A DNA stretch of 64,000 bases from Escherichia coli. Its GTDB lineage: Bacteria > Pseudomonadota > Gammaproteobacteria > Enterobacterales > Enterobacteriaceae. Below are positions 5,657-9,642 of the stretch, piece by piece (within the stretch, counting starts at the first letter, position 1; every line of letters begins with the position of its first letter). The stretch lies in NCBI RefSeq assembly GCF_009931435.1, contig NZ_CP043414.1; one strand, given 5' to 3'. The position numbers were made by a program, and so were the translations under genes. The notes under the pieces were generated by a model. It ran no database searches and was not told the origin of the DNA. It was given only the letters and a program-made list of their open reading frames with translations.

Positions 5657-6322
5657 TTAACTCGCCTGCAAAGCGTTGATTTCGGATTTATCTGCCAGTC
5701 TTTTCAACAGCATATTGAGTAATACGCCATACATTGGCAGGAAGAAAACGATACTGATTAACACTTTGAAACAGTAATCGACCAGCGCGATTTCCATCCA
5801 GTGTTCAGCCATAAAGGCATCTGGGCTGCGCCAGAAGGCAATGAAGAAGAAGGCCAGCGTGTCGCTGACGTTCCCAAACAGGGTGGAAGCCGTCGGTGCC
5901 AGCCACCAGCGACGACTCTGACGCAGGCGGTTAAAAACGTGCACGTCGAGGATTTGCCCCAGCGCGTAGGCCATGAAACTGGCGGTGGCGATACGGGCGA
6001 CAAACAGGTTGAAGTGGGCGAGCGCGCCGAACCCCTGCCATGAACCCATATAGAACAGCGACGAGATGACGTAGGAGATCAGCAATGCGGGGATCATCAC
6101 CGCAAAGATGATGCGACGAGCCAGCGGCGCGCCAAAAATACGCACAGTCAGGTCGGTAGCAAGGAAAATAAACGGAAAGCTAAACGCGCCCCAGGTGGTA
6201 TGGAAACCAAAAATGGATACGGGAAGCTGAACCAGATAGTTACTGGAGGTGATCACCAACAGATGAAATAACGATAACCAGAACAACGCCTTATAGCGTT
6301 GAGTTTGCGAGAAAACGTTCAT
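5657..6322 (-). CDS. yhhQ: queuosine-precursor transporter YhhQ
   Basis: 221-aa polytopic membrane ORF matching YhhQ. Confidence 0.9.
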   Translation of the reverse strand: MNVFSQTQRYKALFWLSLFHLLVITSSNYLVQLPVSIFGFHTTWGAFSFPFIFLATDLTVRIFGAPLARRIIFAVMIPALLISYVISSLFYMGSWQGFGALAHFNLFVARIATASFMAYALGQILDVHVFNRLRQSRRWWLAPTASTLFGNVSDTLAFFFIAFWRSPDAFMAEHWMEIALVDYCFKVLISIVFFLPMYGVLLNMLLKRLADKSEINALQAS

Positions 6323-6542
6323 ATTGTACCTTTTTGATTAACCATTGGGGTGAGGGAACCCAATACGTACGACACGTCTGTTACCTTAACATAATAACGT
6401 GCTGACCCTTTTTTCGAGCCGCCGCATGATACTGCTTTACGTTGACAATGCAATGGTTAATTTTCACGCAATCGTTAACCTGGTTTGCTTACGGACTCAC
6501 AGGGCGTAAACTAGCGCCGTTTTTTTATGTGATGAGAAGAAA

Positions 6543-6788
6543 ATGACCGATCTCTTTTCCAGCCCTGACCACACACTCGACGCACTTGGCCTGCGCTGCC
6601 CGGAACCAGTAATGATGGTGCGCAAAACTGTGCGCAATATGCAGCCAGGTGAAACGTTGCTGATTATTGCTGACGATCCGGCGACGACACGCGATATTCC
6701 TGGGTTTTGTACCTTTATGGAACACGAACTGGTTGCGAAAGAGACCGATGGACTGCCTTATCGTTATTTGATTCGCAAATCGGGGTAA
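6543..6788 (+). CDS. tusA: sulfur carrier protein TusA
   Basis: 81-aa ORF with the conserved [11 protein letters not shown] motif; matches TusA. Confidence 0.95.
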
Positions 6789-6843
6789 GGTGGATCAGGC
6801 TAGCGGACCGATCGCGCTCAATTTTGCGGCTTGAAACCGGTTT

Positions 6844-7079
6844 GTAGGACGGATAAGGCGTTCAAGCTGCATCTGGCGATACGGTGCACAATGCCTGATG
6901 CGACGCTGTCGCGTCTTATCATGCCTACGAGTTCTATGCTCTGTGTAGGACGGATAAGGCGTTCACGCCGCATCCGGCGGTTGTGTGTGGATGCCTGATG
7001 CGACGCTGTCGCGTCTTATCATGCCTACGAGTTCAATGCCCTGTGTAGGCCAGATAAGGCGTTTACGCCGCATCCGGCA
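6844..7079. repeat. BIME cluster of five REP units in alternating orientation
   Basis: GTAGGACGGATAAGGCGTTCA..GCATC.GGCG and its inverted partner GCCTGATGCGACGCTGTCGCGTCTTATCATGCCTAC recur with ~100-bp periodicity (units start near 6844, 6893, 6946, 6993, 7045). Confidence 0.8.
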
Positions 7080-7102
7080 CGCAAACGTAATGGAATGCAC
7101 AA

Positions 7103-7411
7103 ATGGATTATTTAATTCCAGTTTGTCTGGCATTGCTGGGATTGCTCGCGATCTTCACCCCCAATTGGCTGATCCCTGTTTTTATCGTCGTGGGGGGATG
7201 GCTGGGGGTACTTGCCTGGGGTTGGCTCTGGCTAATGATTTTTTTACCTTTACTTAACGGTGTCGGGCTTGCTTATGCCCTGTGGTTGATGTTCAAAAGG
7301 CCATCCATAGCATCCCGCCTGGTTGCTGCATGCTGTGTTATCTCCGTCATTCTGATGTTAGCGCTTTATTATGCTTTCCTGACTATGCCGCCGTTCCCGC
7401 CTCAGCACTAA
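7103..7411 (+). CDS. hypothetical small membrane protein (102 aa, about 3 predicted TM segments), unnamed
   Basis: ORF with strongly hydrophobic, Trp/Leu-rich, CTG-biased coding; weak GGAA upstream of ATG; followed by a 10-bp-stem hairpin; no match recalled to a named K-12 gene. Confidence 0.45.
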   Translation: MDYLIPVCLALLGLLAIFTPNWLIPVFIVVGGWLGVLAWGWLWLMIFLPLLNGVGLAYALWLMFKRPSIASRLVAACCVISVILMLALYYAFLTMPPFPPQH

Positions 7412-7436
7412 GCCTGATAGCCAGAGGCTATCAGGC
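7412..7436. terminator. bidirectional hairpin between the 102-aa ORF and convergent zntA
   Basis: GCCTGATAGC-CAGAG-GCTATCAGGC, perfect 10-bp stem, flanked by T-rich sequence on the + strand and lying 8 bp downstream of the zntA stop. Confidence 0.6.
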
Positions 7437-7443
7437 AACACTT

Positions 7444-9642
7444 TTACTTCCTGCGCAACAATCTTAACGCATTCGCTGTTACCAGCACCGTCGCACCCGT
7501 ATCTGCCAGCACCGCCAGCCATAGTCCGGTCATCCCTAACAGCGTTGTGACGAGGAAGATCCCTTTCAGCCCCAGCGCAATGGTGATGTTCTGGCGGATG
7601 TTGGCGTGAGTGGCGCGTGCCAGTTCAATCATCTGCGCCAGGCCGCGCAGGTGGTTATGGGTTAATGCTGCGTCGGCGGTTTCCAGCGCCACATCTGTGC
7701 CACTGCCCATTGCAATTCCTATGGCGGCAGCTTTCATGGCGGGCGCGTCGTTAATACCGTCACCGACCATCGCCAGAGGCGCATGTTGATTCAGCTCGGT
7801 CACCGCTTTGACTTTATCTTCTGGTAATAGGCCCGCTTTAAATTCCAGCCCCAGTTCACCGGCGATTGCCGCCGCTGCGCGTGGATTATCGCCAGTGAGG
7901 ATCACCCCTTTGACACCCAGGGCGCTCAGTTCGCTGATGGCAGTTGCGGCGTCGGCGCGCAGGGTATCCTGCAATGCAATTACGCCAAGCACGTCATCGT
8001 TACGCACCACCAGTACTACCGTTTGCCCGGCGCTTTCCAGTTCGTTAATTAAACCAGCAAATGCAACAGCCGGATGTTTTCCGGCAGCGCATATCAACAC
8101 GCGCTCGCCGTTAATCAGTGCTTCAATACCAGACCCGACCAGCGCCCGCTGTGATTCGGCGGCGGGAATGGCGAGTTCAGCAACCTGTGCTTCGCGTACG
8201 ATGGCTTGCGCCAATGGATGCGTCGCGCCTTGCTCGACCGCCGCTGCCAGTGTCAGCAGTTCAGATTCACTAATACCCGTTGCCGGATGAATCGCGGTAA
8301 CGCGCGGTTTACCGACGGTCAGCGTACCGGTTTTATCAAACGCCACCTGGGTAACACGACCTAGTTGTTCCAGCGCCGCACCGCCTTTAATCAACGCCCC
8401 ACGACGCGCTGCGGCTGCCAGCCCGGAGGTGATCGCCGCAGGTGTTGAGATCACCAGCGCACACGGGCAGCCAATCAGCAGCAGCGTCAGCCCTTTATAA
8501 ATCCACTCCTGCCAGCTTGCGGCAAACAGCAGCGGCGGCACCAGCGTCACCAGCAGGGCGACGGCCATAATCGCTGGCGTGTAAATACGGCTGAAACGGT
8601 CGATAAACCGCTCAATCGGTGCGCGGCGCTCTTCAGCTTCTTCGATCAGTTTCAGAATCCGGTCAATGGCGCTGGCACCCGGTTCTGACAGCACTTCCAG
8701 CGTTACCAGACGGTCTACGCTGGTGGCGCCTGCAGGAACTTTATCACCCGTCGCGCGTTCCACCGGAATGGATTCGCCGGTCAGGGCGCTTTCATCAAAA
8801 CTGGCAAAGGGCGAGAGCAGTTTACCGTCGGCAGGTAAACGCCCACCTGCCGCAACTTCGATAACATCGCCCGGACGCAGGCTGTTAATTGCTACCTCTT
8901 CACGCTTGCCATTACGCAGGCGCGTGGCGGTTTCCGGTTTCAGCGCCATTAACGCGCTGACCCCTTGACGCGCGCGGCTGGCGGCCCAGCCTTCCAGTCG
9001 TTCACCAATCAAAAACAGCAGCAACACCATCGCAGCTTCAGCCGTTGCGCCAATAAACAGCGCACCAATAGCGGCTACGCTCATTAAGGTTTCAATAGCG
9101 AAGTAGCTGCCGGATTTGATCAGCCGTAATGCCTGACGAGCAATCGGGTACAGCCCAACCAGCGTGGTCGCGATAAACGCCAGTTGACCGAACGGATGAT
9201 TAAACTGCTCCAGACCCCAGCTGATTGCCATCAACACGATTAGCGTAATCAGCGGCAGATTCTCTTTCAGGCGTGATTCTTGTTGTTCGTCGGCGGACTG
9301 TTCATCGCGCAGGGAATAGCCCGCTTTTTGCACCGCAGATTCAACTTGTGCACGGATGTCATTGTCGGCATCAACCACCAGTTTTTCGGTGGCGAACAGC
9401 ACCTGCACCTGATTCACGCCTGCAAGCTGGCGCACGGCATTTTCTACCTTGCGCGCGCAGGCGGCGCAGTCCATGCCGCTGACTTTCCAGCTATAGCGGG
9501 TGCCGGAGACGTTTTCAGAGAGCGTTGGCGTGCTGGAACATGCGCCGTCGCAGCAACAGTCGTTGACGTTCTGTACCGTGGTTAGCGGTTTGAACGCAGA
9601 AAATTGAGGGGCTTTCTTGCCGTGATTGTCAGGAGTCGACAT
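7444..9642 (-). CDS. zntA: Zn/Cd/Pb-exporting P-type ATPase ZntA
   Basis: 732-aa ORF with N-terminal metal-binding GMDCAAC, CPC motif and DKTGTLT phosphorylation motif. Confidence 0.95.
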   Translation of the reverse strand: MSTPDNHGKKAPQFSAFKPLTTVQNVNDCCCDGACSSTPTLSENVSGTRYSWKVSGMDCAACARKVENAVRQLAGVNQVQVLFATEKLVVDADNDIRAQVESAVQKAGYSLRDEQSADEQQESRLKENLPLITLIVLMAISWGLEQFNHPFGQLAFIATTLVGLYPIARQALRLIKSGSYFAIETLMSVAAIGALFIGATAEAAMVLLLFLIGERLEGWAASRARQGVSALMALKPETATRLRNGKREEVAINSLRPGDVIEVAAGGRLPADGKLLSPFASFDESALTGESIPVERATGDKVPAGATSVDRLVTLEVLSEPGASAIDRILKLIEEAEERRAPIERFIDRFSRIYTPAIMAVALLVTLVPPLLFAASWQEWIYKGLTLLLIGCPCALVISTPAAITSGLAAAARRGALIKGGAALEQLGRVTQVAFDKTGTLTVGKPRVTAIHPATGISESELLTLAAAVEQGATHPLAQAIVREAQVAELAIPAAESQRALVGSGIEALINGERVLICAAGKHPAVAFAGLINELESAGQTVVLVVRNDDVLGVIALQDTLRADAATAISELSALGVKGVILTGDNPRAAAAIAGELGLEFKAGLLPEDKVKAVTELNQHAPLAMVGDGINDAPAMKAAAIGIAMGSGTDVALETADAALTHNHLRGLAQMIELARATHANIRQNITIALGLKGIFLVTTLLGMTGLWLAVLADTGATVLVTANALRLLRRK

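Follow-up and report, generated by a model that had tools for sequence, protein, structure and literature searches.

Between tusA and the convergently transcribed zntA, the window (the whole 64,000-nucleotide stretch of Escherichia coli DNA that was analysed, from contig NZ_CP043414.1) contains a small open reading frame (ORF) that had been predicted, from the sequence alone, to encode a 102-aa membrane protein between a BIME array and zntA. This arrangement was confirmed, with an ATG start codon, a TAA stop codon and three REP units upstream (Table 1). The gene order yhhS-dcrB-yhhQ-tusA-ORF-(zntA) was found in every locus inspected.

Table 1. Features of the tusA-zntA region; coordinates are positions in the window unless another locus (L number) is named.
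Feature	Position	Strand	Description and basis
tusA	6543..6788	+	Sulfurtransferase TusA, upstream gene; ORF list and RefSeq annotation of identical loci
BIME array	6843..7079	.	Three REP-pair units, period ~100 bp; direct-repeat families D1 and D2
SD-like GGAA	7092..7095	+	Weak, 7 nt upstream of ATG, within TGGAAT; alignment
ORF	7103-7411, stop codon included	+	ATG start, 102 aa, TAA stop; ORF list and sequence
Tandem duplication	7106..7219	+	19 codons; residues 2-20 (DYLIPVCLALLGLLAIFTP) and 21-39 (NWLIPVFIVVGGWLGVLAW)
G6 homopolymer	7192..7197	+	Site of 1-nt deletion in the E. marmotae lineage and other database variants
Hairpin	7412..7436	.	Perfect 11-bp stem, 3-nt loop; RNA fold -20.9 kcal/mol, z = -3.5
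zntA	7444..9642	-	Zn/Cd/Pb P-type ATPase, convergent neighbour, unusually divergent allele
Convergent gene, 162-188 aa	L003 2878-3372; L009; L010; L025 3001-3567; L026 1501-1995; L012 688-1176		Lies between the small ORF, or tusA, and zntA in a few Escherichia genomes and in contig L012; "DUF2004 domain-containing protein" in RefSeq

REP/BIME elements are imperfect palindromes of about 35 bp that occur in alternating orientation and in many copies per genome. The array upstream of the ORF consists of such repeated imperfect palindromes, and it matched the Rfam family RF02564 (naRNA4, a REP325-derived nucleoid-associated RNA) at 6847-6925, 6948-7025 and 7048-7082, with 67.5 bits for the second match (above the gathering score of 59.5) and 58.4 bits for the first (just below it). 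The BIME part of the query had a median of 21 matching places per E. coli genome. The number of BIME units varies among strains, with gap lengths of 517, 587 or 655 bp, and the last REP in the window ends 23 nt before the start codon of the ORF.

The Shine-Dalgarno (SD) sequence had been called weak, and indeed consists of a GGAA conserved in all relatives. The surrounding TGGAAT is invariant in 12 aligned loci, and AAGGAATGC is found at equal distance from the ATG of a remote relative in contig L012. In some Escherichia lineages (L008, L010 and L013) an extra 24 nt are inserted in the stretch from the last REP to the SD-like motif, roughly 40 nt ahead of the ORF start; this insertion contains the near-palindrome GGCAAT(A/G)ATTGCC (alignment A4, columns 43-66), a possible small hairpin or binding site. 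A scan of 6300-7600 for sigma-70-like promoters found none, even for tusA, and is uninformative.

The predicted perfect hairpin shared by the ORF and zntA is real and stable, with a stem of 11 bp rather than 10 bp. It begins 1 nt past the TAA of the ORF, the zntA stop codon lies 7 nt beyond it, and it is thus contained in the 32-nt gap that separates the two convergent stop codons. A pattern scan for simple intrinsic terminators did not match this hairpin on either strand. The hairpin is present in all loci that carry the ORF only and is missing where a convergent gene of 164 aa parts the ORF from zntA. Two loci with the 164-aa gene, L003 and L009, carry a different hairpin, GCCGCCGGGGCACTCTGGCGGC. 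In these loci the ORF stop codon is followed by a sequence (GCCTGGTATAC at L003 2819-2835 and GCCCTGTATAC at L009 4310-4325) similar to the 5' arm of the window hairpin (GCCTGATAGCC, 7412-7422), and because of this likeness the window hairpin may be a junction product of deletion of the 164-aa gene.

The zntA allele of the window was compared with 5425 complete E. coli genomes; the best identity was 98.6%, in one genome (NZ_CP027579.1), and identity was only 90-95% in 5094 of them. In locus L001 the small ORF is 100% identical to that of the window, yet zntA is 88-97% identical in 200-bp bins, which indicates that the locus is strongly mosaic and recombinant.

The ORF protein had been described as strongly hydrophobic and Trp-rich, and its composition agrees with this description (GRAVY 1.45; 6 Trp among 102 residues, together with 9 Pro). 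Its only ionisable residues are D2, K65, R66, R72 and H102. About three transmembrane segments had been expected, but AlphaFold, with an alignment of 15 sequences, predicted four helices (residues 4-18, 24-39, 41-65 and 69-94; mean pLDDT 73), of which helices 1 and 2, at 15-16 residues, are short for membrane spans. According to the positive-inside rule, basic loops of membrane proteins are cytoplasmic. Since the ORF protein has its sole basic cluster in the loop that joins helices 3 and 4, the predicted topology would place the K65-R66...R72 loop in the cytoplasm and both termini in the periplasm (N-out/C-out). The protein has no catalytic-looking residues, and its most likely role, as far as can be predicted from its sequence, is therefore that of a modulatory or accessory subunit in the membrane, dispensable and without enzymatic activity. 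Inspection of the sequence against the established consensus led to rejection of a lipoprotein or signal-peptide reading, as there is no basic n-region and IPVC is unlike a lipobox.

The statement that codon usage is CTG-rich and E. coli-like proved to be overstated. CTG accounts for 8 of the 22 Leu codons in the ORF versus 62 of 92 in zntA. The ORF also has a lower codon-adaptation score (0.52) than any of the four neighbouring genes (0.67-0.73). Because out-of-frame ORFs of about 100 aa also exist inside zntA, the length of the ORF alone is not beyond chance; it is the comparative evidence, not length, that sets the ORF above chance.

The ORF had been suggested to be either an unannotated small membrane protein or strain-specific sequence, because it could not be matched to any K-12 gene. 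The comparison with K-12 agreed: in MG1655 the tusA-zntA gap is 101 bp and the whole ORF segment is missing. The sequence is also strain-specific, as megablast found the ORF in 317 of 5426 complete E. coli genomes (5.8%), in each of them as a single full-length chromosomal copy, and all 40 megablast rows that were sampled placed it at the zntA locus; it is missing from the other 5109 genomes (about 94%). The suggestion of a small membrane-protein gene is likewise favoured by the analyses below, but the gene is not unannotated, since RefSeq already lists its product as "hypothetical protein" (WP_000385055.1, 100% identical, for example in NZ_CP033635.1). Other alleles in RefSeq are WP_000385056.1, WP_000385059.1 and WP_171460688.1, and the same PGAP/RefSeq label was found in every carrier genome inspected. 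The ORF is thus already catalogued, as an ordinary accessory gene of an orphan family. No paper mentioning the protein, its accession numbers or its sequence was found in the literature.

Relatives of the ORF in a large protein collection were all from Escherichia (E. coli, E. marmotae, E. albertii and unclassified Escherichia), unnamed and lacking Pfam domains. When one genome per GTDB species was scanned, five other Escherichia species proved to carry the ORF in their representative genomes, the E. albertii type strain and E. whittamii among them; an intact syntenic ORF is also present in E. marmotae and in cryptic Escherichia clades. Downstream of tusA, the ORF is missing in Salmonella, Klebsiella, Enterobacter and E. 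fergusonii, and tblastn detected no remnant of it in K-12, E. fergusonii, E. coli strain 6EVA, Klebsiella, Enterobacter or Salmonella. A tblastn search of 50,697 phage records found no phage copies, and the sole "plasmid" match was to a chromosome-sized record of 4.9 Mb; an origin in a mobile element was therefore rejected. Two PLSDB records are in fact of chromosome size, CP125156.1 (5.37 Mb, Klebsiella) and NZ_CP141089.1 (4.94 Mb, E. coli), so "plasmid" matches of chromosomal genes to these records are artefacts.

Selection on the ORF was analysed with 13 distinct DNA alleles, taken from the window and 19 loci of several Escherichia species and diverging by up to about 10% at the DNA level. 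The original prediction had proposed to look for loss of the reading frame in related genomes, and the outcome favours a gene. Frame +0 alone is open in all 13 alleles, the other five frames having stops in most or all of them, and no indels were found among the alleles. The 89 variable sites are distributed over codon positions 1, 2 and 3 as 27, 19 and 43 (P=0.0065). Substitutions were counted by parsimony on a neighbour-joining tree, which is approximate because the locus is mosaic through recombination, and compared with random mutation of the inferred root under the observed transition bias. The 145 substitutions comprised 63 synonymous changes, 82 nonsynonymous changes and no stops, versus 42, 97 and 6.4 expected; no run out of 5000 simulations gave as many as 63 synonymous changes, and the probability of observing no stop was 0.0014. 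The pN/pS ratio (Nei-Gojobori) was 0.39 for the whole ORF and was higher in residues 1-44 (0.59) than in residues 45-102 (0.28). The N-terminal nine residues, MDYLIPVCL, are invariant among full-length proteins. The open frame, the absence of indels, the synonymous excess, the low pN/pS and the conserved start region together support the view that the ORF is translated and that the constraint on it is weak to moderate. The ORF thus resembles a genuine gene in that its frame is open in diverged orthologues and synonymous changes are in excess (omega < 1), and these comparisons support weak to moderate purifying selection where the ORF is kept (omega about 0.4-0.6), strongest in the C-terminal two helices.

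An exhaustive profile search of 1.84 billion representative proteins returned only Escherichia sequences and one remote homologue, P0039 (83 aa, E=1.3e-5), which is 37% identical to the ORF protein over its whole 83 aa and shares the C-terminal motif FPAQH; a repeat search starting from P0039 returned P0039 itself only. P0039 is encoded in L012, a metagenomic contig of enterobacterial type, by an ORF that begins 36 nt past the tusA stop codon; next to this ORF, in convergent orientation, comes a homologue of the 164-aa gene. The tusA gene of L012 has about 80% DNA identity to those of Enterobacter, Klebsiella and E. coli. In a blastn search of the contig against the plasmid collection the tusA part alone was matched, and P0039 is conserved at the protein level only. 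A 42-codon gene fragment located two genes past the homologous ORF in L012 ends in ...QRGKPTCRGKA, versus ...LRLLRRK in the ZntA of the window.

The difference in length between the two proteins, 102 - 83, is exactly 19 residues, which equals the length of the tandem duplication in the N-terminal part of the ORF. The two copies have a BLOSUM62 score of 26 (shuffle P=1.5e-4) and are identical at 31 of 57 nucleotides, a value that none of 20000 codon shuffles reached. Judged from these alignments, the 19-codon duplication gave the Escherichia protein one extra helix relative to the 83-aa homologue, and on the structural model the added helix would flip the N-terminus across the membrane.

Searches of Pfam-A, NCBIfam, PADLOC and PHROGs with the ORF protein and P0039 gave nothing significant. 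Pfam had no match to the ORF protein even at E<=10, PHROGs yielded one entry for the ORF (E=0.18) and PADLOC no family; an anti-phage defence function or a phage-derived origin is unsupported by PADLOC, PHROGs or phage genomes and was rejected. Foldseek comparison of the AlphaFold model with AFDB50 found generic helical bundles only (best E 0.6), and in the PDB a profile search found nothing beyond a noise-level match to MnhF (6u8y chain B, E=0.85).

Several known systems of similar size were considered. Proteins of the small multidrug resistance (SMR) family, such as EmrE and SugE (PF00893), resemble the ORF protein in having about 105 aa and four transmembrane helices. They contain an essential glutamate in TM1. 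In contrast, the ORF protein has no membrane-embedded acidic residue; it contains no Glu, its only acidic residue is D2, and it did not match the profile, and membership in this family was rejected. MnhF/PhaF, a small hydrophobic three-helix subunit of Mrp-type cation/H+ antiporters (NF009243), was the sole database entry that scored at all. The score was 17.1 bits versus a curated cut-off of 95, and the neighbours of the ORF are tusA and zntA with no mrp or mnh genes, so this assignment was also rejected and the match is most likely compositional. Type I toxin-like peptides are single helices of less than about 60 aa with an overlapping antisense RNA. The ORF protein has 102 aa and four predicted helices and no Rfam small RNA overlaps the ORF, and this candidate was rejected as well. 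Members of the y-gene class such as YhhL (DUF1145), which is annotated four genes away in K-12, are like the ORF protein in being of about 100 aa, with hydrophobic helices and no catalytic motifs, chromosomally encoded, dispensable and hypothetical; unlike them, the ORF family is without Pfam or NCBIfam kin, is known from Escherichia and one contig only, and is accessory rather than core.

Disrupted forms of the ORF were found in several lineages. In the E. marmotae lineage, L022-L024 have GTGGGGGATGG versus GTGGGGGGATGG in the window, a 1-nt deletion in the G6 run that puts the ORF out of frame, and the database variants P0026 and P0038 are listed for the same site. P0033 and P0034 have a deletion in the CCTTTAC that directly follows a T7 run, P0027 and P0030 regain the frame near residue 47, and P0016 and P0021 contain in-frame indels of three residues. 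The T7 run (7239-7245) and the G6 run thus lie at or beside sites of independent frameshift variants in the database, which may reflect mutational decay, slippage-prone variation or errors of assembly. Most disruptions leave the C-terminal two helices untouched. Based on the frameshifts in several lineages, at G6, in CCTTTAC and near T7, the ORF is clearly dispensable and may be decaying.

In E. coli GF4-3, E. albertii and Escherichia sp. MOD1-EC7003 the ORF is separated from zntA by the convergent 164-aa gene, and the pair is also found downstream of tusA in L012. E. fergusonii and E. coli 6EVA have the 164-aa gene without the ORF. The gene is present in just 2 of 5426 complete E. coli genomes, and its homologues were found only in Escherichia and L012. 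Its RefSeq name, DUF2004, is unsupported, as none of five members matched any Pfam-A family at E<=0.1, and the AlphaFold model of its product is poor (pLDDT 50.6). Four states of the tusA-zntA gap were therefore seen in E. coli: empty, ORF only, both genes and 164-aa gene only. Independent loss of the two genes argues against an obligate pair.

The content of this region differs further in other genera. In Salmonella (L029) a citrate chemoreceptor gene occupies the tusA-zntA slot, and in an Enterobacter asburiae record (L028) yhgN-asd lies downstream of tusA. The 101-bp gap of K-12 (L006) contains a different GC-rich palindromic element, CCCTCTCCCCAGAGGGGCGAGGGG, and has a hairpin, ACCGATCGC...GCGATCGGT, directly against the zntA stop codon, a degenerate copy of which is found just after tusA in the window (6806-6843). 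These hairpin copies in K-12 and the window place the indel at roughly 6844-7441.

Because the ORF occupies one site, both across the genus and in a more distant relative, its ancestral presence followed by repeated deletion, that is loss rather than gain, is the simplest reading, which we infer from the comparison of these loci. E. coli alleles of the ORF interleave with alleles of other species in the tree and identity in the flanking regions is mosaic, so introgression between Escherichia lineages has probably contributed too.

Taken together, these results suggest, with a probability of roughly 0.75, that the ORF is a genuine accessory gene for an orphan four-helix family of inner-membrane proteins, ancestral at this site and deleted from most E. 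coli. The parts of this explanation that we infer are that the gene is translated, that it is co-transcribed with tusA, how its product is oriented in the membrane, and that it was lost rather than gained. The ancestral order would have been tusA, the small membrane-protein gene, the convergent 164-aa gene and zntA. A three-helix ancestor of 83 aa would have acquired its fourth helix in Escherichia through the 19-codon tandem duplication, BIME elements would later have been inserted between tusA and the ORF, and the segment comprising the BIMEs, the ORF and the hairpin would then have been deleted in most E. coli lineages, K-12 included.

With regard to expression, the short distance from the last REP to the ATG leaves no space for a dedicated promoter. 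This lack of promoter room, together with the ORF of L012 abutting tusA, suggests that the ORF is a distal cistron of the tusA transcript. Translation at a low level by read-through would fit the weak SD, the poor codon adaptation, the upstream BIMEs and the missing promoter space. BIMEs within operons stabilise the upstream RNA and lower distal expression, and the inserted BIMEs may likewise reduce expression of the ORF. The hairpin downstream probably ends or stabilises the ORF transcript, and possibly the convergent zntA transcript too.

It is possible, but unlikely, that the ORF is a relic, a gene of the Escherichia ancestor that is now functionless in E. coli, open only for want of time and heading to deletion. 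The absence of the ORF from 5109 of 5426 E. coli genomes, E. fergusonii and strain 6EVA, the recurrence of independent frameshift variants, the weak SD with low codon adaptation, and the pN/pS of 0.59 in the N-terminal half would all be consistent with decay. However, about six stops would be expected among 145 substitutions and none was seen (P=0.0014), the synonymous excess is significant, no indels occur across the 13 alleles of several species, and a homologue with 37% identity has retained the frame, the hydrophobic pattern and FPAQH. Appreciably less probable than such a relic is that the functional product comprises the C-terminal 58 residues only, two helices starting from M45 (7235), with the N-terminal half a dispensable leader. 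From F47 on almost every column is at least 90% conserved, pN/pS is lower in the C-terminal part (0.28 versus 0.59), most frameshifts are N-terminal with the frame rejoined before residue 47 (P0023, P0026, P0027 and P0030), and the E. albertii record P0031 annotates a 58-aa protein that begins with MIFLPLL. On the other hand, none of the 13 alleles has a stop or an indel in the N-terminal half, full-length proteins do not vary at residues 1-9, the remote homologue retains an N-terminal helix and the SD-to-ATG arrangement, and reading of the sequence before M45 revealed no SD-like motif.

Conservation of this region could alternatively reflect a function of the RNA or DNA, as a zntA 3' region, an antisense element or a structured tusA 3' UTR, an explanation that we consider barely credible. 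The ORF is sandwiched by BIMEs and by a stable hairpin at the zntA stop codon, and the antisense frame -1 has a pN/pS of 0.37, which is expected where third codon positions coincide. Variation is nevertheless concentrated at third codon positions of the + frame, all antisense frames contain 4-11 stops, no Rfam family other than the BIMEs was found, and the remote homologue is conserved at the protein level only. The evidence for constraint on the protein thus favours the genuine accessory gene described above.

A specific role for such an accessory protein would be that of a lineage-specific modulator, which binds ZntA and tunes Zn/Cd/Pb export or links the TusA sulfur relay to the membrane. 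This role, suggested by analogy, is highly doubtful. KdpF and MgtS are modulators of their own pumps, and both KdpF/KdpB and MgtR/MgtS-MgtA are similar to the ORF in that the gene for a small hydrophobic protein lies beside that for a P-type ATPase, here zntA. KdpF and MgtR/MgtS are single-helix peptides of about 30-50 aa that are co-regulated with their pump. Unlike KdpF and MgtS, the ORF is convergent to its neighbouring pump gene, encodes four predicted helices and is missing in most strains that keep zntA. The segment is rich in recombination and the zntA allele next to the ORF is unusually divergent, a setting that would be compatible with a modulator.

In conclusion, a K-12-centred view misses what appears to be a conserved small membrane-protein gene of the Escherichia ancestor, which matters little beyond annotation. 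For the gene itself, the analysis provides a defined start, a topology model, a family boundary and a probable history of helix duplication, BIME insertion and repeated loss. With its four states in E. coli and different content in Salmonella, the tusA-zntA gap appears to be a compact variable slot in the chromosome. If the ORF protein were indeed a modulator, its presence or absence would create differences among strains in metal handling.
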